A DNA stretch of 64,000 nt from Acidobacteriota bacterium (GCA_963664705.1 OY761556.1:2688001-2752000), one strand, 5' to 3'. Counted from the first letter of the stretch, positions 3,382 to 62,267 are shown. Notes: generated from the letters alone by a model not told the origin. Numbers and translations are program-made.

Positions 3382-3399
3382 TGTCACATCTTTATGACA
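3382..3399. promoter_or_regulatory. Palindromic operator, copy 1: TGTCACA-TCTT-TATGACA
   Basis: One mismatch to TGTCACA-N4-TGTGACA; lies in the divergent intergenic region 3150-3545. Confidence 0.7.
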
Positions 3400-3545
3400 C
3401 AGATCGTGTTAGAGTCGTGATAACAGAAGCATCCTGGACGTAATCGGCTGAAAACATGAGCGACCTGGCGACACCGGCGTTTTTTCCGTCCACGGTCAAC
3501 GCTGTCCCCAAAAAGCATGCTGGCGGCGAAGAGAGGCAATTCCAC

Positions 3546-5162
3546 ATGAAACGAGCTCTTTTATTCACAATGTGCGCAGTTCTTGTATCCGGCTTCTGCC
3601 TGGCACAGGCGCCAGCCCCTGTCACGATTGAGAGTGGATTGGTGCAAGGGACGGTTGAAGACAGCCTGACGGTTTACAGAGGCATCCCGTTTGCTGCGCC
3701 ACCAGTTGCCAACCTTCGATGGCGCGCTCCTCAGCCTGTGGCAAAATGGGATGGCGTGAAGGAAACCACGAAGTTTGCTCCTGCCTGCATACAGGGCATG
3801 ATGATGGGACCCAGCGGCAACGGCCCTGCGCCAAGCGAGGATTGCCTATATTTGAACATATGGAGTCCTGCAAAATCGGCGCGCGATCGCATCCCAGTAT
3901 TCGTATGGATCTATGGCGGTGGGTTTGCCATGGGATCCACTTCGGAAGCCACCTATAGCGGGGAGATGCTCGCCAAAAAGGGAGTGATGCTCGTAAGCAT
4001 CGCCTACCGCGTAGGACAAATGGGATTCTTCGTGCATCCGGAGCTGAGCGCCGAGACCCGAAACCGCGTATCGGGCAACTACGGCCTGCTGGATATGATT
4101 GCCGGCCTCCAGTGGATTCAAAAAAATATTGCTGCATTCGGCGGCGACCCACATCGCGTGACAATCTTCGGAGAGTCGGCCGGAGGAATCGCCGTCAGCA
4201 TGTTGTGTGCTTCGCCTTTGGCCAAAGGCCTGTTCCACGGCGCAATCTCGGAGAGCGGCGGATCGTTCGGACCACCAAGGCCCGCAACCATGCCCGGAGA
4301 GAACATGAAACGGCTGTCCGACGCGGAGCGATCGGGGACAGAAACGCTTAAATCGGCTGGCGTGGCATCCATTGCAGAGGCGAGGAAACTCCCTCCGGAC
4401 AAGCTTTCAGGCAACGGAGGCCGTGGTCCAAGCGGTTCGGCGGCTCGTGGCGGTGGCGGTCCGGCGGGTTTGACCAATTGGCCGATCGTCGACGGCTGGG
4501 CGATTCCGGATGATCAATACAAGCTATATGAATCGATGCGATATAACGATGTGCCAGTTCTAGTCGGCTACAATTCCGACGAGGGCTTGAGCTTCTCTCC
4601 TCCGCGGACGCCTGAAGAATATGTTGCCAATGTGAAGTCCCGATTCGGTCCGTTCGCCGACAAACTCATCGCGGCCTACCCTCCAGGAACAGGAACAGTA
4701 GCCAAGACTGCGCGCGACCTCATGCGCGATGCAGCATTTGGGTGGCAAACTTGGATTTGGGCGCGATTGCAATCAAAAACGGGCAAATCCAAGGTTTTCT
4801 ATTATTACTTTGATCAGCACCCGGAATATCCGGCCGACTCACCGCAGGCAGGTCGCGGATCGCCGCACGGACAGGAAGTGGCGTATGTATTTCGACATTT
4901 GAATCCGAGTCAGAAACCCACCAAATCGGATGAGACGATATCAGAGGCTATGGCTACCTACTGGACAAACTTCGCCAAATCCGGAAACCCCAATGGCACA
5001 GGCCTCCCGGAATGGCCGGCCTTCAGCGATTCCAATCCCACGCTAATGTACTTTGCTCAGACTCCTCATACAGGGCCGGTTCCAAGTGCGGATGCACTCA
5101 AAGTCATGGATCAATATTTCGCGTGGCGAAGGACTCCTGAGGGTGAAGCCTTTGTGAAATGA
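3546..5162 (+). CDS. Secreted type-B carboxylesterase/lipase
   Basis: Signal peptide MKRALL... after GAGAGG; GIPFAAPPV, SEDCLYLNIW, GESAG nucleophile elbow, NSDE acid and SPHGQE His. Confidence 0.92.
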   Translation: MKRALLFTMCAVLVSGFCLAQAPAPVTIESGLVQGTVEDSLTVYRGIPFAAPPVANLRWRAPQPVAKWDGVKETTKFAPACIQGMMMGPSGNGPAPSEDCLYLNIWSPAKSARDRIPVFVWIYGGGFAMGSTSEATYSGEMLAKKGVMLVSIAYRVGQMGFFVHPELSAETRNRVSGNYGLLDMIAGLQWIQKNIAAFGGDPHRVTIFGESAGGIAVSMLCASPLAKGLFHGAISESGGSFGPPRPATMPGENMKRLSDAERSGTETLKSAGVASIAEARKLPPDKLSGNGGRGPSGSAARGGGGPAGLTNWPIVDGWAIPDDQYKLYESMRYNDVPVLVGYNSDEGLSFSPPRTPEEYVANVKSRFGPFADKLIAAYPPGTGTVAKTARDLMRDAAFGWQTWIWARLQSKTGKSKVFYYYFDQHPEYPADSPQAGRGSPHGQEVAYVFRHLNPSQKPTKSDETISEAMATYWTNFAKSGNPNGTGLPEWPAFSDSNPTLMYFAQTPHTGPVPSADALKVMDQYFAWRRTPEGEAFVK

Positions 5163-5231
5163 GTTGTGCAGCGGCGGTACGACTTTTGAGATTTGATTCG
5201 CTCAACAATTGTGGGAATAGGGGAAATTTGT

Positions 5232-7682
5232 ATGAAAACCCAGGTAAACGAAGATTGGCTCAGGGAAATTGACAATCTGGAATTGAGTGATCGAATCCGA
5301 CAATGGCAAAAGGCCATGAAAGCTTGCCCGAGCCAAATTTATGTCGATAGACAAAGACTCGCATTGGAGTCCTGGGTGGAAACAGAGGGCGAGGACATAG
5401 AAATCCGAAGGGCAAAACTATTCAAGAAGATCGTCGAAAATGTCCCAATAAAAATACACGATTTCGATGTTCTGGTAGGACGGCTTACACCGGGGGTTAT
5501 TGGCGCAAGCACAGCAATCGATATTGTGGGGGACTATATTCCTGCTATTTGGAATGATGACGGGAAAATTCGCATTTCAGTAACAAATGATGGGACTTTG
5601 TCTAAGGCGGATTTGGAAATACTGCGAGAGAGCGCCAGCTACTTCCGCGGAAAAACTGCGCCCGATTTGGCGTACAAAGCATTGCGCTCCCTGGTTGGCA
5701 CGTGGGCCGAAGATTACGAGAGTGCAAAGGGCAAGGACCCGGTCTTAAGTTCAGGGATTTTTCCCGGAACAAGCGCAACGGTGATGTGGAAGAAGATTTT
5801 GACAAAGGGTCTGAGAAGCATCATTGATGAGGCTAAGGAACACATAAAAAACTTTGCGGAAAAGCAGCAACACGGCATAGACAAGGTCATATTCTGGCAG
5901 GCAGCCGAGATCGTTTTGGAGGCTGCAATCAACCACGCCCACCGATATGCCACACTTGCGGAAAATATGGCCGAAAATGAGGAAAACACAATTCGGCGCG
6001 ATGAACTAAAAGAGATCGCCAGGATTTGCCGGTGGGTTCCGGAGTACCCGGCACGCACATTCCAAGAGGCGCTTCAATCGCTGGCTATTGTCGGCGTGTG
6101 CAAAAACTTTGAACACCCAATGCACTGTCACCCTCACCTTGCCAGGGCCGACGAATATCTATGGCCATATTTTGAACAGGATGTTAAGGGAGGAAAGCTG
6201 ACTCTGGGAAAGGCCGCAGAGCTGCTCGAAGAGATCATCGGTCGTTGGGGAAGCCAGATTTTTGTTGCGACTTCAAGCTTCCAGCAGACACATCAGATCA
6301 ATTATGGAATTCATAATGTAGTAGTGGGTGGCGTAGATGCGAACGGGAATGAGATATCAAACGAGTTGAGCTATCTCATTCTTCACATTATAGGATTATT
6401 AAGAATGTCTTCGCCGACCGTTAGCCTTCGCTGTAATAAAAACACGCCCGGCTGGCTCCTGGAAAAGGGATTAGAGACCAACACCAAGACAAGGGGCGGC
6501 ATTCCCCTCTTTCAGAATGAAGACCACGTGATCGACAGCTTCGTCCGTGACGGGGTACCGGTAGAGGAAGCCAGGGAGTGGTTCGGTCTCGGATGCGTGC
6601 AGCCTGTCGTCCCATCCAAAGTAAAGCACTCAGGATGCGAGGGCGCCGGAACAGTAAACGTTGCGCTTGTATTGGATTTGGCCCTCCATAACGGAGTGTG
6701 TGCCCTCACGGGCAAAAAGCTGGGCATCGAGACCGGCAACCCGCGCGATTTTAGGACCTTTACTGCCCTATACGATGCGTTTAAGCAGCAGTTTTCATTT
6801 ATTGCAACGAGAACGCTTTGGTTGGCTCGCACAGTCCGCGAGATAAATGAAAAACATCTGCGGCTTCCTTTCATGTCCAGCCTGATAACACAAGGCTGTA
6901 TGGACGCAGGAAAGGACGCTCTATGTCCGGACCCGTCTTTCCACATTTTCGTCATGCAAGATCGGGCAATTGTGGATACAGCAGATTCTCTCATGGCTAT
7001 TAAGAAACTTGTATTTGATGAAAAGAAATTGACTATGGATGAGCTGATGGGAGCGATTGACTCAAATTTCGAAGGCGTAAGCGGCGAACAAATTAGACGC
7101 ATGTGCTTGGCTGCTCCAAAATTCGGGAATGATATTGACGAAGTGGATCACATGGTACGAGACCTGGGCAAATTCACCTCCGGTGTGATTCGCTCGTATG
7201 ACAATCATCCATACAGCAACTATGGCGTCGTGCGGGAAGGTTTGTCGTGGCATTATTTCGGCGGATTGGGAGTAGGCGCCCTTCCCAATGGCCGCAAGGC
7301 AAAGGAACCGCTGAACGACGGCTCCATATCACCCATGCGCGGAGCGGATGTAAACGGTCCCACTGCCGTAATTCGGTCTGCAATAAAGGCAGGATTCGAC
7401 GAAGCACAGGCATCCGTTCTCAACCAGAAGTTTTCACCCTCCGCCGTTCAAAGTCCTGAGAGCAGGAAAAAAGTGGCGGCGTATACAGGTACATTTTTTC
7501 AGAACGGCGGTCAGCACATCCAGTTCAATATAGTGGACACTAAAGAATTGCTCGATGCGAAGACAAACCCCGAGAAATACAAGGATCTGATTGTCCGGGT
7601 GGGAGGCTTTAGCGCTTACTTTGTTCAACTCTCCCCAGAGATTCAGGATGACATCATCCTTCGCACCGAGCACTCGCTTTAA
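5232..7682 (+). CDS. Glycyl radical enzyme (PFL superfamily) of unknown substrate
   Basis: C-terminal HIQFN...LIVRVGGFSAYF glycyl loop (7596-7610) and Cys loop GCVQP (6591-6605); about 816 aa from ATG 5232. Confidence 0.92.
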   Translation: MKTQVNEDWLREIDNLELSDRIRQWQKAMKACPSQIYVDRQRLALESWVETEGEDIEIRRAKLFKKIVENVPIKIHDFDVLVGRLTPGVIGASTAIDIVGDYIPAIWNDDGKIRISVTNDGTLSKADLEILRESASYFRGKTAPDLAYKALRSLVGTWAEDYESAKGKDPVLSSGIFPGTSATVMWKKILTKGLRSIIDEAKEHIKNFAEKQQHGIDKVIFWQAAEIVLEAAINHAHRYATLAENMAENEENTIRRDELKEIARICRWVPEYPARTFQEALQSLAIVGVCKNFEHPMHCHPHLARADEYLWPYFEQDVKGGKLTLGKAAELLEEIIGRWGSQIFVATSSFQQTHQINYGIHNVVVGGVDANGNEISNELSYLILHIIGLLRMSSPTVSLRCNKNTPGWLLEKGLETNTKTRGGIPLFQNEDHVIDSFVRDGVPVEEAREWFGLGCVQPVVPSKVKHSGCEGAGTVNVALVLDLALHNGVCALTGKKLGIETGNPRDFRTFTALYDAFKQQFSFIATRTLWLARTVREINEKHLRLPFMSSLITQGCMDAGKDALCPDPSFHIFVMQDRAIVDTADSLMAIKKLVFDEKKLTMDELMGAIDSNFEGVSGEQIRRMCLAAPKFGNDIDEVDHMVRDLGKFTSGVIRSYDNHPYSNYGVVREGLSWHYFGGLGVGALPNGRKAKEPLNDGSISPMRGADVNGPTAVIRSAIKAGFDEAQASVLNQKFSPSAVQSPESRKKVAAYTGTFFQNGGQHIQFNIVDTKELLDAKTNPEKYKDLIVRVGGFSAYFVQLSPEIQDDIILRTEHSL

Positions 7683-7923
7683 TAACAACCCCCCGGCCCT
7701 TCAGTCCTGGGATATCCGCTGTTCACTTGTTCCTCTGACCAGTGAGAGGCATGCTTTGAGCAGAAAAATGACCAAACCTAATCCCCATGGTATTGAATCT
7801 GTGATTCGAAGCAACTCTAAAGCCGGACACAAAGTCTTGCCTTCCGGCGGCAATGAAACGATCTTGACCAAGGTCGGATTTTTGCCTCCTTTAAGTCCAC
7901 AGCCTATGCGCAAACGAAAAGAC

Positions 7924-9372
7924 ATGGTTCAGGAGAAGGTATTCGGTTTCGAGATACCGCCAGAACCAATTCCTTCTCGTGACATTAAGAAAAATATCTA
8001 TGCTGAGGTAGTAGTGGTAGGCGGTGGGATAGCAGGGTTGAGTGCTGCCATTTCTGCAGCAGAGGCAGGAGCCAATACCGTCTTATTGGAGAAGACGGCA
8101 ACCATTCAAGCTCGCGGCCACGATAACGCTTTTATCGGTAGCCGGCTTCAGGAAAAGCTGGGAATAAAAATCGATAGAGACGAAGTCATACTAAATTTAG
8201 TGAAATATGGAGCCAATAAGCCTGACCAAAGACTAATCAGATTGTGGGCCGAAGGAAGCGGTAAAACTGCCGACTGGCTCATGGATATGACGGACGCCGC
8301 GGGTCTCGAGGTAATTATTAACCACTATCCCCCGCCTCCAGCTTTCACTCATGACAGGGAATACTATCCTCAATATTCAGTTACGCACCATTACCACAAT
8401 GAACGTCCAGTAGCCAGATGTTTACTGGATAATGCCCTCAAGAAAGGCGTTACTGCATATTTTAAAACCCGCGCAAAGCAGCTTCTGCGAAAGAAGAACG
8501 GCCGGGTCACCGGCGTTGTTGCCCAAAATGCGGATGGTGAATATCAGCAGTTCAATGCTTCCAAAGCCGTTATACTCTGCACCGGAGATTACAGCAACAA
8601 CGCTGAGATGATGGCTAAATACTGTCCGCAATCATCATACCTCGAATCCATGATACCCACTTCCAATGGAGACGGGCATATGATGGCGATGTGGGTTGGT
8701 GCAGTCATGGAACCCGGGCCGCATATACCGATGATCCACGGCCCCGCCGGTCCACTTCTCAGTTCGGCCTTCCTTCAAGTAAATCTCAAGGGAGAACGCT
8801 TTCAGAATGAAGATGTCCCAATTCAAAGTAATGTAAATGCCGTCGAGCGACAACCTGGCAGGATAGCCTGGCAGGTATTTGATTCGAAGTATCCGGAGGA
8901 ACTTCCATATCTTGGGATAGGCCTGGGGAAAATTATTATTGCAACTAAAACAATCCGGCAAAAAGTGGATAAAGCAGCAATAAAGGCCAACTCGATCGAA
9001 GAACTGGCAACGAAGATGAAAATACCGGTTGAAGCCTTTGTGGCCACCATCAGGAGATACAACGAACTGGCACGACTGGGAAGAGATCTGGACTTTGGCA
9101 AGCGGCCGGATCGCTTGTTTGCTATTGATAATCCCCCATATTGTGCGGGTAAAAGTGGTTACGAATTACTGGCTGTTTTGGGAGGCCTTAATATCAATTG
9201 GAAATTGCAGCCTCTGGATAAGGATTGGGAAATCATTCCAGGAATCTATCTTGCAGGAAATACAATGGGCAATCGCTTTGCCGTAGATTACCCAACGATG
9301 TGCCCCGGGCTTAGCCATGGAATGGCAATACACTTTGGCCGGGTTGCCGGGTTAAATGCTGCCTCGCAATAA
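7924..9372 (+). CDS. FAD-dependent oxidoreductase (flavocytochrome c / fumarate reductase / 3-ketosteroid dehydrogenase-like)
   Basis: VVVVGGGIAG FAD motif, LCTGD, GDGHMMA, GERFQNE, DLDFGK and IPGIYLAGN. Start uncertain (7906 or 7924); the upstream ORF extension overlaps the GRE gene. Confidence 0.85.
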   Translation: MVQEKVFGFEIPPEPIPSRDIKKNIYAEVVVVGGGIAGLSAAISAAEAGANTVLLEKTATIQARGHDNAFIGSRLQEKLGIKIDRDEVILNLVKYGANKPDQRLIRLWAEGSGKTADWLMDMTDAAGLEVIINHYPPPPAFTHDREYYPQYSVTHHYHNERPVARCLLDNALKKGVTAYFKTRAKQLLRKKNGRVTGVVAQNADGEYQQFNASKAVILCTGDYSNNAEMMAKYCPQSSYLESMIPTSNGDGHMMAMWVGAVMEPGPHIPMIHGPAGPLLSSAFLQVNLKGERFQNEDVPIQSNVNAVERQPGRIAWQVFDSKYPEELPYLGIGLGKIIIATKTIRQKVDKAAIKANSIEELATKMKIPVEAFVATIRRYNELARLGRDLDFGKRPDRLFAIDNPPYCAGKSGYELLAVLGGLNINWKLQPLDKDWEIIPGIYLAGNTMGNRFAVDYPTMCPGLSHGMAIHFGRVAGLNAASQ

Positions 9373-11209: not shown

Positions 11210-12055
11210 TCACTGTTTCGAAGCCGGAATTTTGGGACACCCGTTTGGACAAAGCGTAATGACGTGTACAAAGCGCAGCTTCCCATTTTCCAGTCGGAAA
11301 GTGTGTGCGTCGGGCAATCCTTTCTCGCCACCGAAGTCGATCTGTCCCATGACAGCTCCCAGGTCGACGTCCACTATGTAGCGTCGATTATTCATTGGCA
11401 CGCCCCCACCTTTGGGAACTCCTTCGGTGCAGGCTGGGTTTGGGTGGTTATCGGCGTTGGTGTAGTACCCGCCCTCAATACGGCTGCAAGGAATGCCCCA
11501 GGGCAATTTATTGAAGGCTGAATAATCCTGGAAAATGTCGAAATAATCGTCCGCGACCTTGATCAGTGCCTTACGATCCATGCGCTTATCGGACGGAATA
11601 ATTTCCCACTTCTCTGTGGACGAGTATTTCAGATAACTCTTTGCATCGAACAGCCAGTCTCGCTTATCGCTTGCAAGGCTTTCAATCTCGGCAATCCTGC
11701 CATCGGAGATTTTCAACCGGGTTCCGATGACCCATGGGTGATCGCTATTCGACTGAATGATCTCAGTGTAAGATTCGCAGATATCCACATCGTAAATGCT
11801 GCGACTGAAATCGATTGGGAAAGGCTTTTTCCAGAGGCCCTGTCCCAACGGAATTACCTTTCTTCTTTCGATATATTTTGCCTGAGTGACGAGAGGCATC
11901 AGAGATGGATCCCCTTTTTTCAAGGCACTTAGATATTTGTTGGTCACTTCCTGAAGTCCTGTTCGCGTGCATCCTTTGCCTGCTGAAGTCAGGACGGGCT
12001 CCGCCGAGGCAGGAATAGCAAAACAAAGCAGCAAAAACGAAATGATTATCCGCAT
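11210..12055 (-). CDS. Secreted protein of unknown function (paralog of 52750..53634)
   Basis: Signal peptide; shares C-x-R-x-x-L...KYL-x-A...PSL-x-P, LG-x-GLWK, RLKI-x-D-x-x-I-x-E-x-E and R-x-E-x-G blocks with 52750..53634. Confidence 0.8.
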   Translation of the reverse strand: MRIIISFLLLCFAIPASAEPVLTSAGKGCTRTGLQEVTNKYLSALKKGDPSLMPLVTQAKYIERRKVIPLGQGLWKKPFPIDFSRSIYDVDICESYTEIIQSNSDHPWVIGTRLKISDGRIAEIESLASDKRDWLFDAKSYLKYSSTEKWEIIPSDKRMDRKALIKVADDYFDIFQDYSAFNKLPWGIPCSRIEGGYYTNADNHPNPACTEGVPKGGGVPMNNRRYIVDVDLGAVMGQIDFGGEKGLPDAHTFRLENGKLRFVHVITLCPNGCPKIPASKQ

Positions 12056-12091
12056 CCTATCTCCTTTTTGTTGAGTTCGAATAGTTTTATC

Positions 12092-13198: not shown

Positions 13199-13282
13199 TC
13201 CGTTCTCCTATTTACCAAGGTATCCATCGAGCCGCAGTGGGCTTGATCAGATACAGGCCCGCATTTCCAATGCCTCAATCAC

Positions 13283-15259: not shown

Positions 15260-15365
15260 GGCCAACCCTCACCAGGCGTGAAAGTTCCTGCATTTATGGT
15301 TCCTTTGTACTGCATGTGGCCGGAAATCGAAGAGTTGTCTAAAAGCGATACCTTAGCACAATTGT

Positions 15366-15395
15366 TGTCACATAGCTGTGACAATATTCTTGACA
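15366..15395 (+). promoter_or_regulatory. Palindromic operator, copy 2 (TGTCACA-TAGC-TGTGACA), followed 6 bp later by a TTGACA -35 element
   Basis: Perfect palindrome at 15366-15383; TTGACA at 15390-15395; possible -10 GATAGT at 15412-15417, upstream of the ABC operon. Confidence 0.8.
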
Positions 15396-16809: not shown

Positions 16810-16814
16810 TCCGC

Positions 16815-39542: not shown

Positions 39543-39572
39543 TGTCAAGAAATATGTCACATATGTGTGACA
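39543..39572 (-). promoter_or_regulatory. Palindromic operator, copy 3 (TGTCACA-TATG-TGTGACA), with minus-strand TTGACA 6 bp away
   Basis: Palindrome at 39555-39572; TGTCAA at 39543-39548 reads TTGACA on the minus strand. It heads the minus-strand run 39445 to 26272. Confidence 0.8.
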
Positions 39573-47385: not shown

Positions 47386-47419
47386 ATGAAAAATGTCACA
47401 TAATTGTGACATTTTTCAT
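47386..47419. promoter_or_regulatory. Palindromic operator, copy 4, extended: ATGAAAAATGTCACA-TAAT-TGTGACATTTTTCAT
   Basis: Perfect 15-bp arms with core at 47394-47411; divergent region between the amidohydrolase/aldolase operon and the MFS/tannase operon. Confidence 0.82.
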
Positions 47420-47478
47420 GCTAAAGTCTTGACTCCCGAAGGACTCAAACGGTTTCCCACTCTACGATTGAGGGGTCA

Positions 47479-49999: not shown

Positions 50000-50017
50000 T
50001 ATTCTTTTTTCCTTTTA

Positions 50018-50065: not shown

Positions 50066-50100
50066 GACAGGGCAGTTAAAGACGGCTGAGGAGAATTATC

Positions 50101-53705: not shown

Positions 53706-55655
53706 CTATTTGATATACGGGTTGTATTTGATTGCGCCGGTTTTCTGATCACGGGAATAGTGTTTGAAGAAATCCCATGCAAGCCTGGCATACTCGGGAT
53801 AGAGGGCGTGAATCAGATTCTCCGTATAGTTTAGCGCTACCATCGGAACCCCGCTGCCATTATTCAGATACCAGCTATAGTTATCATACTCGTTATTGAG
53901 CCTAGTCCTCTCCAAACGATCCGCCTTGAAGCCGGCTATCGGGTACGTCGCGAAATCATAGGGACCAATCGTCTTCATACCATTGTAGCCAAGAAAGAGA
54001 TTGAGCTGGGTCTGGTACCCGACGGCGATGCTTCCATTAGCTTGATCGAATGCACCCCCCAAATCGAACGAAGAAGTGGTGAACATCACCGGCAAATTAG
54101 CCTTCTTCAGCTGCACGGCCTGTTCCGGGGTAGCGGTATAAGGCGCAGCCGCCATGGGAACCGCGGCTGCAAACACAAAGGGATCGCCATTGATTGCTTT
54201 GAGTGTTCCGGCCCCGCCCATTGAGTAGCCGGTAACATAAACGCGCGATGGATCCAATGCCGGGTAGGTTTTGAGAATGCTCTTAACGAACCGGGGCAGG
54301 ATATTGCACAACAAGCCTTGAAGCGTGGGATCGTTCGTTCTCGAGAAATTCAGAGACTGATGCTCCGGCGCAACCATGGCAAAGCGTTCGGAACCCGCCA
54401 GGTCCAGCAAGCCGATTTCGTCCACAAACACGCGGGGGTCATCTCCGCCTCCATGCATGGCCAGAATCAGCGGCACGGTTCCCGCAGGCGCCGTTCCCTT
54501 CAGCACTTCTTCCGGAAGATATTCAAACCAGGTCTGCAGGTATTCGCCCTCTTTCGACTTAATGTCGCTGAATGCTTCCGAAGTCTTTCGGATTAGGTGG
54601 ATACCGTCTTGCGTCACTCCGCTGATTACGGCATTTCTGCGGCACAATGAATATGGGGCCTCATCGAAGTTGTATCCCTGGTAAGGAGTGGATGCGGAGT
54701 ATAGCCCCTGCTTGATGACGGGCACACGCATCGCTTTAATGAACAGGTTGTAGTAGGCATCTTTTATATATCTGGCGGCATCCGACTTTCCTGTTTCCTT
54801 TGCGACGACAACTCTTTTGAGAGGAAGCGCCTGGTTATAGTGTGTTTCAACGCCGCCGGCGCTTATGTACGCATCGACATCATTGGCCTTTTTATATTTT
54901 GCAACGATTGATTCAGCTGTATTCACGAGATACACGGGAACGAGTGCCGCAACCCCGCGAATGCTATCCATTTTGCCGTTGATCAAAAGCATGCCGGCAA
55001 TGCGGCTTACGTAATCGAAAGTTCCGGCGACATAGTTATTGAGAAATGTTGCGCCGCCGTCCAGGCCGATCACATAGGTATAACCATATCCCCCGAAGTA
55101 CTCTGCATCCGAATAACTTATGGCCGTACTCCCACTTCTTTCAGAAGCCTTTTGGGCCAACATGGCAGTCTGAAGAGCGTAATAATATTTCTGGTCATTT
55201 GCGGTAAAGCCCGCTTTGGGATCCGATGGAGTGACAAGCACGATGCTGCCAACTGCCTGGTCAATGATCTTGGTCAAACCCAAGTCCTTGAGATATGCAA
55301 GCGCGGCATCTTTGCCGGCAAATGATATTTCGGCGAACACCAGAATATTTGTGTTCAGCCTTGCCGCGGCGCGTCCGCCGAACAGATTGGCGGATCGATA
55401 GACATACGTAATCCCTTTGGGATAGTTGTCCAAAACGGGGTGAGACTTGAACGTTTTTCCATTATTGGTTTCCAATGGAGCGACGGCCGCGGGACTGCTA
55501 GCGCGGGTTTCTTCCAAGGTTTCGAAGGTAACCGGATTCCCCTGGCTGCCGGAATAATTCAGCGCAAAAACACGGTAGGAGGGTAGGCAGCTCGCTACCA
55601 GCGCCATAAAAATCGCTAAAAACAACCTCTGCTTGAACATAACCTGATTCTCCAA
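53706..55655 (-). CDS. Secreted two-domain esterase (C-terminal PHB-depolymerase-like alpha/beta hydrolase)
   Basis: PLILAMHGGG, RVYVTGYSMGG and LIHALYPEY; large uncharacterised N-terminal domain. Confidence 0.8.
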   Translation of the reverse strand: MENQVMFKQRLFLAIFMALVASCLPSYRVFALNYSGSQGNPVTFETLEETRASSPAAVAPLETNNGKTFKSHPVLDNYPKGITYVYRSANLFGGRAAARLNTNILVFAEISFAGKDAALAYLKDLGLTKIIDQAVGSIVLVTPSDPKAGFTANDQKYYYALQTAMLAQKASERSGSTAISYSDAEYFGGYGYTYVIGLDGGATFLNNYVAGTFDYVSRIAGMLLINGKMDSIRGVAALVPVYLVNTAESIVAKYKKANDVDAYISAGGVETHYNQALPLKRVVVAKETGKSDAARYIKDAYYNLFIKAMRVPVIKQGLYSASTPYQGYNFDEAPYSLCRRNAVISGVTQDGIHLIRKTSEAFSDIKSKEGEYLQTWFEYLPEEVLKGTAPAGTVPLILAMHGGGDDPRVFVDEIGLLDLAGSERFAMVAPEHQSLNFSRTNDPTLQGLLCNILPRFVKSILKTYPALDPSRVYVTGYSMGGAGTLKAINGDPFVFAAAVPMAAAPYTATPEQAVQLKKANLPVMFTTSSFDLGGAFDQANGSIAVGYQTQLNLFLGYNGMKTIGPYDFATYPIAGFKADRLERTRLNNEYDNYSWYLNNGSGVPMVALNYTENLIHALYPEYARLAWDFFKHYSRDQKTGAIKYNPYIK

Positions 55656-55693
55656 TGGTTGATATAAAAAACAAGAGAAGCACCCGAAAGGAG

Positions 55694-55769
55694 CCTTGGA
55701 GTGCGGCGCCTTGCCGTCTTAAACAGCCGAAAGGCGGTGGCAAGCCACCGCACTCCAAGGGCTTCGCCT
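55694..55769. repeat. REP-like palindromic element, family A
   Basis: CCTTGGAGTGCGGC...AAAGGCGGTGGCAAGCCACCGCACTCCAAGGGCTTCGCCT. Confidence 0.82.
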
Positions 55770-55786
55770 TCTACGAAAAGCTGTGA

Positions 55787-57238
55787 TTACGGCCTTTTGA
55801 AGGTCCAGCGCGATTTATCGCTCTTAAGGTCAAACTTAGCTAAAGTCGGGGTACTGCGGCCCGCTGCCGTCAATACAAACGGTTCCGGGGAACCGGCAAC
55901 CGATTTGGACATGATTCGGAAAGTGCCGTCAGTGAGTTGATCGATACGCCACAGCTGTTCGGGAGCGCCGGAGAATGACGGAACCGTCACAACATCATTG
56001 TCAGCAGTTGCCGATAAAGCGCGATCGGTACCCGCGACTACAATCTTAAAATAGGGCGACCCGGGATAACCGCCGACATCGGCAACCGGCGTGATTGTCC
56101 ATTTTTGATGGGGGCGAGACATGAAGTCGCCGATGCGCAGATCTATGTTGCCGGACGGCCAGTTTGCTTGCACCTGCGCCAGTTCCTGAGGCGGGACCGG
56201 GGCTATCGGTCCGCTGGGCGGGCCGAAACCTCGCATTCCGCCGGGCATTCGCACAAAATCGACCGCCAGTTCAAGAGCAAATCCGCTGCGCTCTGACTGG
56301 ATCTCATAGGTTCCTCCGACAAAGTTGTCGCCGCCTATTGGCCATCCGTCCTTCCAAAGCAGCGGGCGAATGTCCATTACGCTTCGGCCGCTGCGGTCCA
56401 GGTCGGCCTCGTAATGGCAGGAGAATTTCTGTACGTCATCACCAAGGTCCAACAGGCCAAAGTGGCCCGGCCCTACAAAACGGCCGCTCGCGGCTACCAC
56501 CAGTTTGCCGCCCCCCTTAAGCAGTTCAACGCCCATATTATCCACATAGGGGCCGAGCACATTTCTGGAGCGGCCCACGCGGATATTGTAGGTGGAGTTT
56601 GCTCCATCGCAGCAAGTGCCATGTGTTCCGAGCAGATAATACCAGCCATCCCGATACATCATCGCGGTGGCTTCCATATCAATAGCAACGTTGACAGGCT
56701 GATTGCCGGTTATGCGCTTCCCTGTTTTTGGATCGAGTTCCACTAAGCGGATAAATCCAAAGTAGGTCCCATAACTGAGCCACAGGCGGCTGGTGACAGG
56801 ATCGAGCAGGAATGCCGGGTCAATGGCATCGCAGTCTTCGACGCCGTCACTCGAGGCGACGATGTTCTCATCGTGAAATCCAAATTCGGGCGACTTGGGA
56901 TCGAGGCTTTTTGTCCACACGGTTTTGATGTTGCTGGCGTGCCCTCCGGACATACCTCCGCCGCCCACGGCGTAGGTCACGAGATATTGTTCTCCGATTT
57001 TGATGATGTCGGGAGCCACTCCCCCACCGGGACGCACCGCCCCGCTGTGCCAGGTCCAGCCATCTTCAGATATGAGCCCCCCACCGCCGGTGCCGAAAGC
57101 GAAATACTCACCGTTGCTGAATGCAATGGTCGACGGATCGTGGATATAGGGTTCGCCATTCAGAGCGGGCGCCTGCGCGGACACTGGAGAAATCACTGTG
57201 GCCAGTAACATTGCTGTCGCCAGCAAATTTGATTTCAT
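55787..57238 (-). CDS. Secreted GH43 glycoside hydrolase (arabinanase/arabinofuranosidase-like) with C-terminal ricin-like module
   Basis: IHDPS, APD, AIDP, MEA and GPGH GH43 motifs; Q.W repeats at the C-terminus; ATG 57238 follows GGGAG. Confidence 0.88.
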   Translation of the reverse strand: MKSNLLATAMLLATVISPVSAQAPALNGEPYIHDPSTIAFSNGEYFAFGTGGGGLISEDGWTWHSGAVRPGGGVAPDIIKIGEQYLVTYAVGGGGMSGGHASNIKTVWTKSLDPKSPEFGFHDENIVASSDGVEDCDAIDPAFLLDPVTSRLWLSYGTYFGFIRLVELDPKTGKRITGNQPVNVAIDMEATAMMYRDGWYYLLGTHGTCCDGANSTYNIRVGRSRNVLGPYVDNMGVELLKGGGKLVVAASGRFVGPGHFGLLDLGDDVQKFSCHYEADLDRSGRSVMDIRPLLWKDGWPIGGDNFVGGTYEIQSERSGFALELAVDFVRMPGGMRGFGPPSGPIAPVPPQELAQVQANWPSGNIDLRIGDFMSRPHQKWTITPVADVGGYPGSPYFKIVVAGTDRALSATADNDVVTVPSFSGAPEQLWRIDQLTDGTFRIMSKSVAGSPEPFVLTAAGRSTPTLAKFDLKSDKSRWTFKRP

Positions 57239-57278
57239 GAAAACTCCCAAACAAATAATTTTTGATTCGTGAACCACG

Positions 57279-58097
57279 CTATATTCCAGCGCTATCGAGG
57301 CTCACCGTAATATCCTTGATCGGAATTCCATTCTCATCAATAAAGCGGACGCAGAAATCACTCAGGCCAGGACCGTTGATAACAGCCCCATAAATGATAT
57401 TCGAACCCTTTTTCAGGGTGAGTCGTTTAGATACGACATCATCCATGACCATGCGTCGATCGTCAAACAGTGCGACGGCCTCCTTGCCGTTCACCCACCA
57501 GATGGATGCCGAATTGGAACCTGCGGCCAAACGGACACTCTTGATCTCTTGGGGGCTGTTCACTACCGTCGCCACCCAGAAGATGACGCCATAGGTTGGT
57601 TTGTTCAGGCCATAGGCAAAACGAAATAGTTTGACGTTGAAATCAACGGAATCGAGAGCATGCCATGTCAATTCCTGGTTTCCGATCATTACCTTTTCGC
57701 CGTCCCTGGGAATGACAGCGAACTGGTTGGGGAGGCATTCTGAAAAAGCTTTCCGAATGTAAGTTCCAGTGAATACTGTATTGGTGCGGTTGGGCTTGTT
57801 GATCGGTTCAAGCAGCAGCCACCGCTGGATGAATCCATCCTTGTCCGGACTCTTCGGCTTTGAAGTGGCCGGGCTGAAGTATGACGCGACGCTGCGATCG
57901 GGTGTATCCCCGGGAATTGCGAGTTGAAATCCAGTTATCACCAGGACTGCCACTGCAACATGCAGTCGCTTTGGAATGCAGCAGTTTGCTGCCGCCTTAC
58001 ACAGCCGAATGGCGGTGGCAAGCCACCGTATTCCAAGGGCTTCGCCTGAATCAAACTGAGGTGTAGAGGCCTTTGTAATCTTTATTGTGGGCTTCAT
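57279..58097 (-). CDS. Conserved secreted hypothetical protein upstream of GH43 (start uncertain; REP in 5' region)
   Basis: Protein-like core FIQRWLLLEPI...WHALDS...GSNSAS...RRMVMDD...INGPGLSDFC. A hydrophobic signal-like segment begins near 57965. Confidence 0.65.
   Translation of the reverse strand: MKPTIKITKASTPQFDSGEALGIRWLATAIRLCKAAANCCIPKRLHVAVAVLVITGFQLAIPGDTPDRSVASYFSPATSKPKSPDKDGFIQRWLLLEPINKPNRTNTVFTGTYIRKAFSECLPNQFAVIPRDGEKVMIGNQELTWHALDSVDFNVKLFRFAYGLNKPTYGVIFWVATVVNSPQEIKSVRLAAGSNSASIWWVNGKEAVALFDDRRMVMDDVVSKRLTLKKGSNIIYGAVINGPGLSDFCVRFIDENGIPIKDITVSLDSAGI
57970..58047. repeat. REP-like palindromic element, family A (degenerate)
   Basis: TTGGAATGCAGCAG...ACAGCCGAATGGCGGTGGCAAGCCACCGTATTCCAAGGGCTTCGCCT, closely matching the 55694 copy. 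Confidence 0.78.
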
Positions 58098-59904
58098 AGT
58101 TTTTCTTGAGATCACCCCAGTAAGCATGCGGCATTTCTCCGATCTTCACTTTACCGTCTACCAGCTTAAGCGTGATGAACTTCTTCCATTCAGGCGGATC
58201 CATTTGGGGGTAGTCAATTCTTTGGAAATTCAAATGCCTGCTGCTGGCCTTGCGCGCCAGTGAACCCTCGATAATCAATTGCGAGAACTTGAGTATGTTC
58301 AGATCTTCCAGGCTGCGCAAAAGCTTGTGTGGGTCAAGAGCGTAGAGGCTGGGAACAAAGTCTTTTTCTATTTCCTTGAGCGCATCCAAGCCCATATTAA
58401 GCAGTTTTTCGGTCTTATATTCGCTGCAGAAGTACTGCATCATACGCGCCATTCCCGCATGCAGTTCTTTCCACTCGATTCCTTCTCTCCTTTTAATCGG
58501 AGCATAAACGCGGGCTTTCTCCCGCACAACCTGATCCCTTGATATTGCCGGCCGGCTTGCCTGAGAAGCATAGGCAGCTGCTTTTCTGCCAGCATATCTG
58601 CCGGTAGATGCTGCATAGCCGTGAGCTGCGGGAGCAAACATTTGTTCTCCCGCGGCATACAATCCTTCCAAAGTAGTTCTCAAATCCCAGTCGACCACAA
58701 CGCCGCCTCGGTCATTCATGCTGTCGGGAGAGCGGAAATGGGCCGGCGTGGATCCTTCCAGAAGCGTGTGATTCATCATCAAGTCTTTGGTCGGATCATA
58801 CCCGGCACTCTCAAAAACCCGTCTCATGGCAATTGCCGTCGATTCCTCCCTATATCCCAAATCCCAATTGATCTTCCTCCAGCCCTCTGACATGGCAGGA
58901 AAATCTCCCCAGAAAGGCAAAGAGAGTTCTCCTTTGAGCACCGCATCACGGGCTGCCGCGGTCGATGGCAATGCTCTTCCATTGTCATCGACCGATGGAA
59001 CATTTTCGAAAACTGGATCGTTCCCGGCAGAATCGATTTTATGTTTGTGGCCTGTCCCCAGATAAAGAAGACCTGACTTCTCCGTCAGGGTCAATTCGGC
59101 ACCAGCTCCATAAGCCATCACCGTTCCGTCCCCAGACGCATTGCGCGACCTGAAAGTGGAAATCCCGGCCAACTCTGTATTGAAAACCCAAACGGATCCG
59201 ATTCCGGCTGTGGCCAATACAACTGCCTTCGCCTTGAAAATCATGAATTCGCCTGTTCGCGTATTGATTCCGGTTGCGCCTGCCACCCTGGCACCGTGAA
59301 GACCCTTTTCGTTTAAAAGGCTGGTCCCCGCGATCCTGTCATAAACCTGCACCCCTAAACGCTCGCATTCTTTTTTCAATGCAGGCTTGACCGTCGTTCC
59401 CCAAAAGCGAAGCGAAATACCCTCAGGCTGGTACCTGTCCGCAACGACAATTTTTGTTTTATCGTCCCGTCCCGGAGCGCCAACGAATTCATCATTGGTG
59501 TCCCTCATCTTGGCGCCCATTTTTTCCAATTCCTGAAACGCGTCATAGCCTTCCTGGCATTCGATTGCGTGCCCAATCCCGTTGCTGTAACCGCCCTGAC
59601 TGTCGATAAGGCGCTGGCACTGCACGAATGGATCGACCTTTGCCAACGGACAGGTCATTGGATAGTCCCAGTGATCGCCGCCCGGTCCTCCGGCCCCGCT
59701 TCTCAAAGTAGCCGCCTTTTCGACAAGCGCAACCTTTACTCCCTTTGTCCTGGCCGCACTGAGAGCCGCCCAGCAACCGGCGATGCCGCCGCCGATCACA
59801 AGCACATCCGTCTCGATTTCCTGCTCCTGCTCATATCGTATTTGATAAGGCCACTCCGGAACACGACCGTCATTTTCCATCAATTCATGCCATGAAGAAG
59901 TCAT
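58051..59904 (-). CDS. AprA/succinate dehydrogenase flavoprotein-like FAD oxidoreductase
   Basis: DVLVIGGGIAG, RSGAG, LATAG, GDG, TTLEGLYAAGE and SLARKAS...RIDYP C-terminal domain; no signal peptide. Confidence 0.85.
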   Translation of the reverse strand: MTSSWHELMENDGRVPEWPYQIRYEQEQEIETDVLVIGGGIAGCWAALSAARTKGVKVALVEKAATLRSGAGGPGGDHWDYPMTCPLAKVDPFVQCQRLIDSQGGYSNGIGHAIECQEGYDAFQELEKMGAKMRDTNDEFVGAPGRDDKTKIVVADRYQPEGISLRFWGTTVKPALKKECERLGVQVYDRIAGTSLLNEKGLHGARVAGATGINTRTGEFMIFKAKAVVLATAGIGSVWVFNTELAGISTFRSRNASGDGTVMAYGAGAELTLTEKSGLLYLGTGHKHKIDSAGNDPVFENVPSVDDNGRALPSTAAARDAVLKGELSLPFWGDFPAMSEGWRKINWDLGYREESTAIAMRRVFESAGYDPTKDLMMNHTLLEGSTPAHFRSPDSMNDRGGVVVDWDLRTTLEGLYAAGEQMFAPAAHGYAASTGRYAGRKAAAYASQASRPAISRDQVVREKARVYAPIKRREGIEWKELHAGMARMMQYFCSEYKTEKLLNMGLDALKEIEKDFVPSLYALDPHKLLRSLEDLNILKFSQLIIEGSLARKASSRHLNFQRIDYPQMDPPEWKKFITLKLVDGKVKIGEMPHAYWGDLKKNYEAHNKDYKGLYTSV

Positions 59905-59979
59905 GGTTCATTCTCCCTCCGAGCTCCATTCGGTGTGGATGCCAGATATTCGGCTAATAGATCCAGAACCGGCTGCGAA

Positions 59980-60393
59980 TCAGACCCTAAATATTTCCCC
60001 GGTTGCTTTGCGTTTATAAAATCCTCTCTGTTGAAGCGGCCAATTAAATTTTATGGCGCCCTGCGTTCGACGAGGACACTCATTCACACAGCAGCCGCAA
60101 TACCAGCACTCATCCGGGTGCAAAGTAATCGGAGGCTTTCCCTTTATGGGATTGGGCACATACACATCAATCTGGCATATGTTGACGCATGTATTGCAGC
60201 CGTTGCAGATTTCGGCATTTCGGATGACGGGCCTGTTCGGCGTGGATATGTTGGGTAATATGTACACCTTGTCTTTCTTGTCTTCCGCTCCCTTAAGAAC
60301 CTCGCCGGCCCCTTCGAGCGTTGCCGCGGCACCGGCAACAGCTCCCGCCTTCAAAAATTCTCTGCGTTTCATTGCTGTGCTTTTCTTTTTCAT
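59980..60393 (-). CDS. AprB-like 2x[4Fe-4S] ferredoxin with twin-arginine signal peptide
   Basis: CNGCNTCVNIC and CWYCGCCVNECP clusters; N-terminal KRREFLK followed by an Ala/Gly h-region. Start at 60393 or 60372. Confidence 0.85.
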   Translation of the reverse strand: MKKKSTAMKRREFLKAGAVAGAAATLEGAGEVLKGAEDKKDKVYILPNISTPNRPVIRNAEICNGCNTCVNICQIDVYVPNPIKGKPPITLHPDECWYCGCCVNECPRRTQGAIKFNWPLQQRGFYKRKATGEIFRV

Positions 60394-60583
60394 TTTCGTT
60401 CATCCGCAAATAATCCGAGCCTTGGAAGCCTCAAAGAAACCCAAGCTCGATAATTGATTTGAACCTCATTGCAGCAATAACTGAGTTATCGGCTTCCATA
60501 ATCTCTATGGAGGAGCCAATTGGGTTTAAGTGGAGAGGGAGAGCCAATCTCCCGCCAGCCAAACTATCGGCCTGTTCACAAGT

Positions 60584-60613
60584 TGTCAAGAAATATGTCA
60601 CATATCTGTGACA
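60584..60613 (-). promoter_or_regulatory. Palindromic operator, copy 5 (TGTCACA-TATC-TGTGACA), with minus-strand TTGACA 6 bp away
   Basis: Palindrome at 60596-60613; TGTCAA at 60584-60589; 30/31 identical to 39542-39572. Confidence 0.82.
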
Positions 60614-60619
60614 CCTTTT

Positions 60620-62143
60620 TTACAATTGATTGTTCCTGGAATACTGTCGGATCAGAAACTCCATGATACTGTCCGGGCCCTTGTTGCTGGCATATGCGCA
60701 GTCATAGAAACACATTTTGTTGGGGTCGTTTTCCGTAAAGGGTTTCCACACGGGCATATCAGACCCATCAGCATCTTTGCCGTTGGGATCGCCAGAACGG
60801 ATGAAATTAGCCCAGTAATTGCACATTGTACGTGCAAGATCGTAGTGCTTGCCGACAAAAGGTCTCCAACACTTAGCCAGCGTCTCAAAAAAGAACCAGA
60901 GGTCCACGGAGTGGAAAGCGCCTGGATTATCCCAACCAGGAATCTCCGGATTGAAGATCCAGTAGTATATCGGTGTCTTTTCGGCCGTCCTGGCTTTTGC
61001 CTTGCCGAAAAGTCTGATCGAATACTCCAGGTAGCTGACACTGGCTTTATGAAGCATTTCCATAATGCTTCCGTTATACGATGCACAAAGCTTAAGAAAT
61101 TCGCCGGATTCGTCACCATAAGCTTCCTGCGCAAACGCTTTGAATGCTTCCGCTGACTTGACCTTGGGCCGGTCGGGAAATTCGGTAGCCGTATGGCCGA
61201 GCATCATGGGAACCAGTTGACATCTGTTTTCCATGAAAAGCTTGTTGGCATCACCGACAATAAACTTGCCATCGATTACCGGACCCCAGAATGCTTTATA
61301 TTCCACCATCTTGTCTCTGAGGAAGACCGCATCCAACCGGCGAGCTTCCGCAAGGGAGGATACGCCCAGAATTTTAAAGAACTCTACGCCGTCTTGCTCA
61401 GCCTCGGTTAAATCCTTTTCACGGTGAAAAAAGCCTCCAGGGTAAGCCGTTATCGTCAGGCCGGAATCGACAATGGCTTTCTGAAAAAGTCCGGCATTCT
61501 GTGGCGACGTCACCTGGGCCATGACGCTGCCTCCTCCCGCAGATTGTCCCCCAATCGTAATGTTATCGGGGTCTCCGCCAAAGGCGGCGATATTCCGTTT
61601 CACCCATCGGGTCCCGAACTGTTGGTCCAGGTGTCCGAAATTTGCAGGGGCTCCGGGACTTTCCGCTGTGATCTCCGGGTGGCAGAGGAACCCAAAGGCA
61701 TTCAGCCGGTAATTGAGAGTGACTACCACAATGCCTCGTCTGGCAATGCGCTCGCCGTCAAATTCCATTTCTGCGGTGTTGCCTTCCTGGAGTCCGCCGC
61801 CGAAATACCACACGAAAACAGGAAGTTTTTCGTTGGCGCTTTTTGCAGGCGTCCAAACATTGAGATGCAAGGAATCCTCATCCATTGCGATGGACGTATC
61901 TACATTCCATTCTCTTGAATAAATGTTTTCCGGGTCCTCTCCGGGAATGTGCTGCATAGAAATCGGAGCGAAATTATATGCCTTCAGAACTCCTTCCCAA
62001 TTGTATGCGGGCTGAGGAGCTCGCCAGCGGTTGCGGCCGACAGGAGGTGCGGCAAAGGGAATCCCTTTGAAGGAGGTGATACGCGGATCAGCAGCCGGCA
62101 AACCTTCAATGGGGCCGTTCTCGACAACAACGCTTCTTAGCAT
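60620..62143 (-). CDS. Cytoplasmic type-B carboxylesterase
   Basis: GIPFAAPPVG, DEDSLHLNVW, GQSAG and GAFHSVDL; ATG 62143 follows AAGGAG. Confidence 0.92.
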   Translation of the reverse strand: MLRSVVVENGPIEGLPAADPRITSFKGIPFAAPPVGRNRWRAPQPAYNWEGVLKAYNFAPISMQHIPGEDPENIYSREWNVDTSIAMDEDSLHLNVWTPAKSANEKLPVFVWYFGGGLQEGNTAEMEFDGERIARRGIVVVTLNYRLNAFGFLCHPEITAESPGAPANFGHLDQQFGTRWVKRNIAAFGGDPDNITIGGQSAGGGSVMAQVTSPQNAGLFQKAIVDSGLTITAYPGGFFHREKDLTEAEQDGVEFFKILGVSSLAEARRLDAVFLRDKMVEYKAFWGPVIDGKFIVGDANKLFMENRCQLVPMMLGHTATEFPDRPKVKSAEAFKAFAQEAYGDESGEFLKLCASYNGSIMEMLHKASVSYLEYSIRLFGKAKARTAEKTPIYYWIFNPEIPGWDNPGAFHSVDLWFFFETLAKCWRPFVGKHYDLARTMCNYWANFIRSGDPNGKDADGSDMPVWKPFTENDPNKMCFYDCAYASNKGPDSIMEFLIRQYSRNNQL

Positions 62144-62249
62144 ACGATTCTCCTTAGAAAACAATGGGTTCAGTGGCGGGAGCGCCGGCGCTCCCATAGA
62201 CGCCCGTTTCGTATTAGATTTAAAATTATGGCACAACAGGAGAGGATGA

Positions 62250-62267
62250 TGTCATAATTATGTGACA
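62250..62267. promoter_or_regulatory. Palindromic operator, copy 6 (TGTCATA-ATTA-TGTGACA)
   Basis: One mismatch to consensus, in the divergent region 62144-62352; followed by a second palindrome TACTTTTGCAAAAGTA at 62274-62289. Confidence 0.72.

Follow-up and report, generated by a model that had tools for sequence, protein, structure and literature searches.

A shared palindromic operator, a candidate GntR-type regulator, and putative copied promoter units in a proposed catabolic regulon of Acidobacteriota

A stretch of 64,000 nucleotides from an Acidobacteriota bacterium (C1:2688001-2752000 of a 6.89-Mb single-contig genome, hereafter the window) contains six copies of an 18-bp palindrome upstream of genes for esterases, glycosidases, transporters, and redox enzymes, which raises the question of what protein acts at these sites and in which direction. 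An initial annotation of the window had proposed one dimeric factor, possibly an activator. Rescanning of the window recovered the six copies at the positions given there (Table 1), four of them perfect and two with one mismatch, and 100 shuffled sequences contained a mean of 0.07 copies and never six. All six are intergenic and five lie between divergent genes, as had been described; the copy at 60596 sits between tandem minus-strand genes. No site is present at three further divergent gene pairs of the window (24157/24321, 42194/42287, and 52697/52750). We likewise found TTGACA exactly 6 bp from the operator at 15366 (+), 39555 (-), and 60596 (-), and identity of 30/31 bp between copies 3 and 5. 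The TTGACT noted 17 bp from the copy at 47394 is present, but it is probably not a -35 element, being located downstream of an extended -10 (TGCTAAAGT) that lies 7 bp from the site. The latter spacing, a second fixed geometry that had been overlooked, also occurs at 3382 (+) and 15366 (-).

The palindrome and a candidate regulator

Across the genome, palindromes with a 4-bp spacer and at most one mismatch numbered 22 (10 perfect and 12 with one mismatch), compared to 0-2 for any other spacer length between 0 and 10. When a matrix was derived from the six copies in the window, it returned the same 22 as its top matches at 21 bits or more, with the next score at 16.9, and ten column-permuted matrices gave 0-3 genome matches at 20 bits. 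The consensus, TGTCAYA-(A/T-rich N4)-TRTGACA, holds 26 bits, and its form T-GT-N12-AC-A agrees with the GntR operator consensus NyGTNxACNy (PMC4494728). All 22 top sites are intergenic although 87% of the genome is coding; thus, the motif is not equally frequent in coding DNA, an outcome that would have spoken against the proposed regulon. An operator followed at 6 bp by TTGACA occurs at 50 places in 185,579 species genomes, 49 of them in records titled Acidobacteriota or Acidobacteria.

Seventeen of the 22 sites fall within positions 2,617,658-2,763,430 of the genome (146 kb, 2.1% of its length) and five are remote, so the window shows under half of the cluster. The regulon had been described as island-wide; it is not limited to the window and spans the 146 kb plus the five remote sites. 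This region is only mildly atypical, with a GC content of 52.3% versus 53.2% and a tetranucleotide divergence in the 62nd-83rd percentile, and on the basis of these modest shifts its status as a genomic island is not established. One tRNA-like end is common to the region and a separate atypical block, and the motif is patchy in the genus (18 of 24 genomes). The separate block (2539673-2598055, reaching the 98th percentile) contains phage-like open reading frames (ORFs) between tRNA-Ser and the tRNA-like copy and is probably an integrated element with att sites; the regulon region starts straight after it.

No DNA-binding domain was detected among the 45 main ORFs of the window in a scan that covered ORFs of 90 amino acids (aa) and longer, which bears out the annotation's report of no regulator as far as the window itself is concerned. 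Just outside it, however, 5.8-6.7 kb to the left of its first base, is a gene encoding a 315-aa GntR protein (genome C1:2681267-2682214, +; L005:5267-6214), situated 240 bp downstream of a perfect operator that is the best-scoring one. A transcription-factor gene carrying its own site, as the annotation had envisaged, is therefore present, and its neighbors encode a TonB-dependent receptor and a 4Fe-4S protein. Among 78 metagenomic loci with homologs, 58 had a readable recognition helix and at least 400 bp of upstream sequence. The site was located within 600 bp upstream in 34 of 47 homologs with the helix residues N-R-G, compared to none of 11 with N-R-S or N-R-N; by identity class the figures were 29/35 versus 6/24, and the background was 34 of 4776 genes. 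Within the same genus, the site is at most 750 bp away for 11 of 16 N-R-G regulators. The 24 genomes of that genus divided into 16 with both regulator and motif, none with the regulator only, two with the motif only, and six with neither, and the motif was absent from all 16 genomes examined from other families; these co-occurrence counts ignore kinship, and related genomes are not independent. The site also persists upstream of the GntR gene while its spacing and the flanking promoter type vary. From these patterns we consider it very probable that the 315-aa GntR protein binds the palindrome.

Several observations weigh against this assignment. Thirteen of the 47 N-R-G genes lack an upstream site, and the contrast between helices is essentially one split in the tree, where the site label changes 7 times compared to 14 in shuffled versions (43 rows, with N-R-G-K paralogs, some other loci, and genes having less than 400 bp of upstream sequence left out by the pattern that selected them). 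The two genomes with the motif only have one site each; G009 is 100% complete in 380 contigs and G023 is 71% complete. In addition, a de novo palindrome search upstream of the paralogs with other helices and of 19 distant family members yielded no shared motif.

Some individual loci of this protein group deserve mention. TGTCT-type palindromes were seen at two N-R-N loci, a number too small for a conclusion. Variant palindromes of the TGTC-N10-GACA frame occur at L095, L097, and L104, about 80-210 bp downstream of N-R-G-L paralogs, and at L100 and L119, upstream of N-R-N paralogs; such sequences near paralogs with altered helices are possible paralog-specific operators. One regulator ortholog (L033, G017:C1:43590-44537) is split by frameshifts, yet its genome keeps sites, and one paralog (L031, G021:C303:10892-11839) has an internal TAG; both defects could be assembly errors. 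Two members of the GntR group share a contig at L080 and at L101, and sites are located both between the two and on their outer sides; a local duplication or a small cascade may account for this arrangement. A search of the genome contigs for related loci with the regulator as the single query protein gave no match.

The palindrome might instead be the operator of another factor, such as the nearby GntR-FCD, LacI, or TetR protein, the paralog at 4766079, or an OmpR/PhoB- or CRP-type protein, with the GntR gene just one of its targets. An upstream site by itself shows only that the GntR gene belongs to the regulon or lies beside a regulated gene, a GntR-FCD gene is often linked to the region, and two genomes have the motif without the 315-aa regulator. 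The half-site also resembles the pho-box half-site, and the type B site described below is at the pho-box position. Nevertheless, the candidates examined fared poorly. GntR-FCD was rejected as the regulator because no site of at least 14 bits was present at 13 of 13 loci and because it was not found in five motif-bearing genomes, one of which has 9 sites, and LacI because its ortholog was found in only 2 of 24 genomes. The paralog at 4766079 is 40% identical, has the helix H-H-S, and belongs to a clade without the site. A pho box is also an 18-bp site 10 bp upstream of the -10, but it is a direct repeat with an 11-bp period and the sequence here is an inverted one; a PhoB/OmpR box was rejected on a count of 0 direct versus 16 inverted versions. 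The CRP/FNR/HcpR site (TGTGA-N6-TCACA) was rejected because its half-site order is opposite, and the reversed order of the present motif, T(R)TGACA-N4-TGTCA(Y)A, was counted 0 times. Given also the persistence of the site ahead of the GntR gene despite changes in its surroundings, we regard control by another factor as improbable.

A reading without a transcription factor is less probable still. The palindrome could be the remnant of a mobile element, with abutted TG...CA ends and outward promoters, or a chromosome-organizing site such as matS or parS; the units appear to have been copied, promoter elements point outward on both sides, the sites cluster in one region, and the central CA-N4-TG is like joined insertion sequence ends. 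Against the first version, the sites lack flanking inverted repeats of greater length, and the scanned proteins of the region and its surroundings included no transposase. Chromosome-organizing sites fall within genes too, a habit at odds with 22 of 22 intergenic top sites, and the nearer GC-skew extreme is 0.6-0.75 Mb away from the cluster. More generally, the distribution of the motif follows one regulator, and the 138 kb searched gave no Rfam match. We consider both versions highly unlikely.

The motif had been set apart from those of CRP, Rex, and other described regulators, and we also found no match. A literature search, with RegPrecise, CollecTF, and the supplements of PMC4494728 and PMC6191309 outside its scope, provided no description of either the motif or the regulator. 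HcpR/CRP sites have the form TTGTGA-N6-TCACAA (PMC545781). Among published strings resembling the motif, those in HcpR/CooA tables, a mycobacterial MarR site, and the Bacillus subtilis MtlR site did not correspond to it.

The candidate protein has a PF00392 winged helix that scored 32.6 bits (cut-off 27). In its AlphaFold model (mean predicted local distance difference test, pLDDT, of 88), the winged helix (residues 1-76) precedes two long helices (84-125) and two alpha/beta lobes (129-310). A homodimer model obtained a score of 0.64 versus 0.00 for the best of three controls, with at least 95% contact agreement between runs and a pLDDT of 84; the mark used for this score was reached by 20 of 30 solved pairs and by 1 of 23 single chains. 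The modeled interface comprises residues 86-123 of the helices, and dimeric binding is predicted. The C-terminal lobes matched no family in the local sets of Pfam and NCBIfam, PF27163 being absent from that Pfam set, and only weak fold matches were seen (ferrochelatase and XylFII, with template modeling scores of about 0.3). The AraR subfamily, in which a GntR domain is joined to a LacI-type domain, was ruled out by the lack of any Peripla_BP match to the C-terminal part at E values up to 1.

The DNA-binding domain is closest to that of YtrA (profile E value of 5e-23; top Foldseek hits), represented by Sulfolobus YtrA (PDB 6sbs) and Listeria Lmo2241 (PDB 4ham), and the likeness extends to the two subsequent helices that form the predicted dimer interface. 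PMC4494728 gives YtrA proteins a palindrome with GT and AC far from its center, as found here, and about 50 C-terminal residues forming two helices; it mostly assigns them one ATP-binding cassette (ABC) operon with a single, rarely divergent site. In contrast, the present protein has approximately 190 more residues in two lobes and about 22 sites, mostly in divergent regions. On account of the extra lobes (129-310) and of 22 sites rather than one ABC operon, it is a YtrA-like protein with an added, presumably ligand-binding domain and lies outside the YtrA subfamily as defined in PMC4494728.

A second point of comparison is PMM1637, a 323-aa GntR protein of the PlmA type. According to PMC6191309, expression of a reporter increases with this protein, which binds to a palindrome that begins at -55 to -57; its CGRE1 site is GTT(G/A)-N13-14-inverted (21-22 nt), and its own promoter is unbound. 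The two proteins share a length of about 320 aa, a YtrA-related N terminus, and a palindrome just upstream of the -35 region. PlmA is described as limited to cyanobacteria in PMC5083789, whereas the present host is acidobacterial, the palindrome is another one, and the site lies upstream of 34 of 47 of the regulator's own (N-R-G) genes. The closest Atlas clusters (score 0.95-0.96) combine GntR with YmtS_Ross (PF27163) in 14-80% of their members, and a Calothrix plasmid protein whose close relatives have PF27163 aligned over 292 columns with 99.6% probability (HHalign). The protein differs from YmtS_Ross regulators in that its own clade lists PF00392 only and in that distant members lack this motif upstream. 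Full-length relatives occur in 19 of 151 genomes of the phylum, and the literature search found no paper on YmtS regulators.

Promoter geometry and direction of regulation

Where a single geometry had been described, we distinguished three, one of which points to repression. At type A promoters the operator is followed by 6 bp, TTGACA, mostly 18 bp, and TAGnnY, so that the site extends from -60 to -43 with its center at about -51.5, consistent with the earlier placement near -51 upstream of TTGACA. At type B promoters the operator is followed by 7 bp and TGnTAnnnT with no -35 hexamer, and the site spans -40 to -23 (center about -31.5). At type R promoters, found at the regulator gene, only 2 bp separate the operator from TGnTA(A/G/C)AAT, and the site spans -35 to -18. 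The corresponding distances from the site end to the -10-like hexamer are 29-30, 10, and 5 bp. In the genome of the window, type A was present at 13 of 44 flanks (plus one with a 7-bp linker; background 1%) and type B at 6 of 44 (plus one with 6 bp; background 0.1%). The relatives, for which 62 of 64 perfect sites were used (all except two upstream of the regulator gene), exhibited type A at 45 of 124 flanks and type B at 34 of 124. Both types stood back to back on one operator at 24 of the 62 sites in relatives and at 3 of 22 in the window's own genome. After near-identical contexts were collapsed, 122 sites with 244 flanks comprised 70 type A, 46 type B, 16 type R, and 112 other flanks, and TAnnnT peaked at offsets 5 (21 cases), 10 (40), and 29-30 (55). 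An apparent fourth geometry, with a -10-like peak at offset 19, was discarded as mostly the end of a second, degenerate tandem site. Type R gave 23 matches at regulator orthologs, all at offset 2 and often at the second of two sites 21 bp apart; it was also present at genome positions 2667653/2667674.

Genes behind the two catabolic geometries overlap in part. When the members of each family are tallied according to the type of promoter preceding them, type A is found mostly before flavoprotein oxidoreductases (13/13 and 4/6), TonB-dependent receptors (4/4), tannases (5/5), and ABC binding proteins (4/6), and type B mostly before esterases (9/14 and 9/12) and major facilitator superfamily (MFS) transporters (4/4). 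Esterases, Zn-dehydrogenases, and one unnamed family lie behind both.

We lean toward a reading in which the protein activates at type A promoters and represses its own gene. The GntR dimer would activate the catabolic promoters from the site centered near -51.5 and would repress its own gene from a site that overlaps the strong type R promoter; at type B the site would take the place of the -35, two helical turns from its type A position. Activation at type A is suggested by the maintenance of the -10 distance despite decay of the -35, with TAnnnT remaining at offset 29 behind a decayed -35 in 9 of 60 flanks that have neither TTGACA nor type B, and by the pairing of a perfect -35 with a minimal -10. 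The mean match to the -10 consensus (of 6) was 3.5 for type A and 4.0 for type B, compared to 3.9-4.0 genome-wide and to 5.0, plus TG, for the 23 type R promoters, where the operator position is half a turn out of phase with that of type B. Since type A and type B promoters drive the same kinds of enzyme, and families found behind both favor regulation in the same direction over a switch, we judge activation at type B to be somewhat more plausible than blocking. PMM1637, with its similar size and its palindrome starting at -55 to -57, may by analogy provide a precedent for GntR activation (PMC6191309).

CRP activates from -61.5 (class I) and -41.5 (class II), positions that, like -51.5 and -31.5 here, are 20 bp apart; the protein fold and the motif are different. 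Activation from both upstream of and in place of the -35 is known for response regulators, but we know of no GntR protein that does so. Back-to-back promoters on a common operator, about 82 bp apart, are also present in lambda PR/PRM, although a literature search gave no confirmation of the lambda figure.

Pure repression through the same operator and GntR protein is a possibility to which we assign a clearly lower likelihood. One dimer would block both back-to-back promoters and leave upon binding an inducer, obstructing the -35 position of type B and the upstream alpha C-terminal domain (alpha-CTD) region of type A. Such a mechanism would suit the overlap of type B and type R sites with the core promoter, the perfect TTGACA and genome-normal spacer of type A, and the overlapping enzyme families behind types A and B. 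It leaves unexplained why the -10 distance is kept when the -35 decays, why the perfect -35 of type A is accompanied by a 3-of-6 -10, and why the regulator's own promoter has the operator at another position on a much stronger -10. A repressor site wholly upstream of -43 would also be unusual. In favor of pure repression, the characterized Sulfolobus YtrA is a repressor (PMC6746942), and both operons of a GntR divergon are usually controlled through one site (PMC4494728).

Besides the repression by Sulfolobus YtrA, other points count against activation or against the geometry from which it is argued. Perfect TTGACA and extended -10 elements both mark activator-independent promoters. The 18-bp spacer is normal in this genome (41 cases versus 48 at 17 bp) and provides no sign of a weak promoter. 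The 9 flanks with a decayed -35 represent about five lineages. The stricter linker of type A compared to type B (58/60 versus 40/48, p = 0.02) faded in a larger set (67/76 versus 38/46). Of the 45 type A flanks, 36 fall in one cluster; the flanks share ancestry, and part of the fixed spacing is therefore inherited. Much of this spacing reflects copied promoter units, so that the sites cannot be counted as independent. All 23 type R promoters are orthologs of one another, and in the present genome the type R promoter of the regulator gene is degenerate. Finally, promoter positions assume standard sigma-70 spacing and consensus, start sites are predicted, and both promoter function and the direction of regulation are read from sequence.

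Putative copied promoter units and the genes they precede

Several sites resemble one another well beyond the operator. The sequence at 15366 matched that at genome position 1130028, 1.57 Mb away, over 87 of 111 bp; these precede an ABC binding protein gene and a flavin adenine dinucleotide (FAD) oxidoreductase gene, respectively. The sequence at 39555 matched that at 2617658 over 68 of 76 bp (17/18 in the spacer), before an esterase and a membrane protein gene. A third match, of 15366 with 2756144, covered 61 of 79 bp and ran from -23 to +38, an interval that coincides with the two-way unit. The units are 78-89% identical overall, the 15366/1130028 pair being more similar in the core, and the similarity reaches past the operator and hexamers as far as the vicinity of the predicted start sites, where it ends. 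A promoter unit thus appears to have been copied before unrelated genes, and the regulon would have grown by placement of this 80-110 bp operator-promoter unit ahead of new genes; duplication of a gene together with its promoter followed by gene replacement would give the same picture. Putative mobile promoters are defined in PMC3575422 (Nijveen, Matus-Garcia, and van Passel) as sequences that precede unrelated genes of one genome and are at least 80% identical over 50 nt or more, and the 68/76 match of 39555 with 2617658 falls within that definition. Those sequences share with the present ones a high identity upstream of unrelated genes in one genome; as described there, they are mostly pairs without an assigned factor, whereas the units here are two-way, carry one operator, are tied to a named candidate regulator, and recur genus-wide.

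The 45 main ORFs of the window encode carboxylesterases, PF00756 esterases, CocE/NonD hydrolases, a tannase/feruloyl esterase, GDSL, GH3, GH43, and SnoaL proteins, a sugar-type ABC importer, an MFS transporter, a glycyl-radical enzyme, flavoproteins, an AprA-like/4Fe-4S pair, two DHDPS-family proteins, and sugar-acid dehydratases. The remainder of the cluster adds TonB-dependent receptors, sucrose phosphorylase, more esterases, and flavoproteins with twin-arginine translocation (TAT) signals, and it holds four regulators (LacI, TetR, the GntR-FCD protein, and the 315-aa GntR protein). The earlier proposal of one dimeric factor and of a regulon of catabolic genes is supported. The clues to the substrate are secreted esterases, including tannase/feruloyl types, xylosidase- and arabinanase-like glycosidases, and importers; the flavoprotein reductases possess sub-cut-off similarity to vinylphenol reductase and flavocytochrome c, and enzyme assignments hold at the broad family level. 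This gene content suggests that the substrates are esterified plant polymers and their phenolic or sugar products, utilized under low oxygen. A ligand, we infer, binds the two-lobed C-terminal domain. The genes under control encode esterases (feruloyl/tannase-type and others), GH3 and GH43 proteins, TonB-dependent receptors, the ABC importer, and flavoprotein reductases, and by this reasoning the ligand is most likely a breakdown product of such polymers.

A fuller scheme, which we consider conceivable but less likely than not, is that one dimer of an undescribed GntR subgroup occupies the center of a self-contained 80-110 bp two-way promoter unit and activates in both directions through geometries two helical turns apart, and that repeated copying of the unit ahead of unrelated hydrolase, transporter, and reductase genes produced a genus-specific catabolic regulon. 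If this is true, the system would represent natural regulon assembly by promoter-cassette propagation in uncultured Acidobacteriota. A transcription-factor regulon is in itself of an ordinary kind; what is new is the regulator, whose type is undescribed, the two-way arrangement with its fixed spacings, and the signs of copying. The palindrome and its genes constitute a first candidate operator and regulon for a widespread, uncharacterized group of GntR proteins of about 320 aa, in which activation by a GntR protein from two positions could readily be examined. They also bring together under one signal many genes for hydrolases, transporters, and reductases that have no other evident connection in this uncultured acidobacterial genus, and many orphan enzymes could be linked to a substrate once the ligand is identified. 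The copied units are a traceable example of regulon growth by promoter-unit reuse, and the compact two-way inducible promoter has a possible use in biosensors.

Features of the window and further observations

Table 1. Operator copies and putative promoter elements in the window, with coordinates counted from its first base
Feature	Position	Strand	Geometry	Remarks
Operator copy 1	3382..3399	.	B	One mismatch; toward carboxylesterase / glycyl-radical enzyme / flavoprotein operon 3456-9372 (+)
Extended -10 TGTTAGAGT	3407..3415	+	B	7 bp from operator 1, no -35 hexamer; putative promoter element
Extended -10 TGCTAAGGT	15350..15358	-	B	7 bp from operator 2, toward SnoaL-domain operon 11210-15265 (-); putative promoter element
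Operator copy 2	15366..15383	.	A+B	Perfect; middle of full back-to-back unit
TTGACA-18 bp-TAGTAA	15390..15419	+	A	Putative promoter, toward ABC importer and CocE/NonD hydrolase genes 15463-22891 (+)
Operator copy 3 and TTGACA at 6 bp	39543..39572 (operator 39555-39572)	-	A	Perfect; toward esterase / GDSL / GH3 / carboxylesterase cluster 26272-39502 (-)
Operator copy 4 and extended -10 TGCTAAAGT	47394..47427 (operator 47394-47411)	+	B	Perfect; extended -10 at 47419-47427; toward MFS transporter and esterase genes 47479-51684 (+)
Operator copy 5	60561..60613 (operator 60596-60613)	-	A	Perfect; TTGACA 60584-60589, 17 bp, TAGTTT
Operator copy 6	62250..62267	.	Neither	One mismatch; between carboxylesterase (-) and esterase (+) genes

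On the divergent side of copy 4 are a DUF6282 gene and two DHDPS-family genes. Copy 5 faces the genes for a TAT 4Fe-4S protein, an AprA-like flavoprotein, a GH43 protein, and an esterase (53706-60393, -). At copy 6, a candidate CATAAT -10 on the minus side is overlapped by a degenerate second half-site.

The glycyl-radical enzyme of the window (5193-7682) scored below every specific NCBIfam cut-off and has no adjoining gene for an activating enzyme; a second glycyl-radical enzyme, with a likely activase, is encoded at genome 2612901-2616324. Two pairs of an AprA-like flavoprotein and a 4Fe-4S protein (window 58051-60393 and L006:3590-5825) each lie behind a type A promoter. The window copy of the flavoprotein is far below the AprA cut-off, the L006 copy was identified by Pfam and likeness only, and the ferredoxin of the window pair has a TAT-like signal.

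Similar secreted esterase-like proteins of approximately 640 aa are encoded at window 53706-55655, from 63614 onward (L006:1614-3566), and at genome 5827585, and uncharacterized proteins of about 285 aa recur at 11210-12055, 52750-53634, and genome 5826665. Such recurrences suggest that genes of this system were duplicated more than once.

The gene toward which the type A promoter at genome 2633062 is directed (L002:13600-15420; genome about 2633620-2635419, +) continues through an in-frame TGA within a U-S-S-C motif and probably encodes a selenoprotein like those of the UGSC family. A second copy (genome about 4763500-4765347, +) adjoins the paralogous GntR gene, and two UGSC-domain genes are located in the window at 40377-42194 and 42287-44179.

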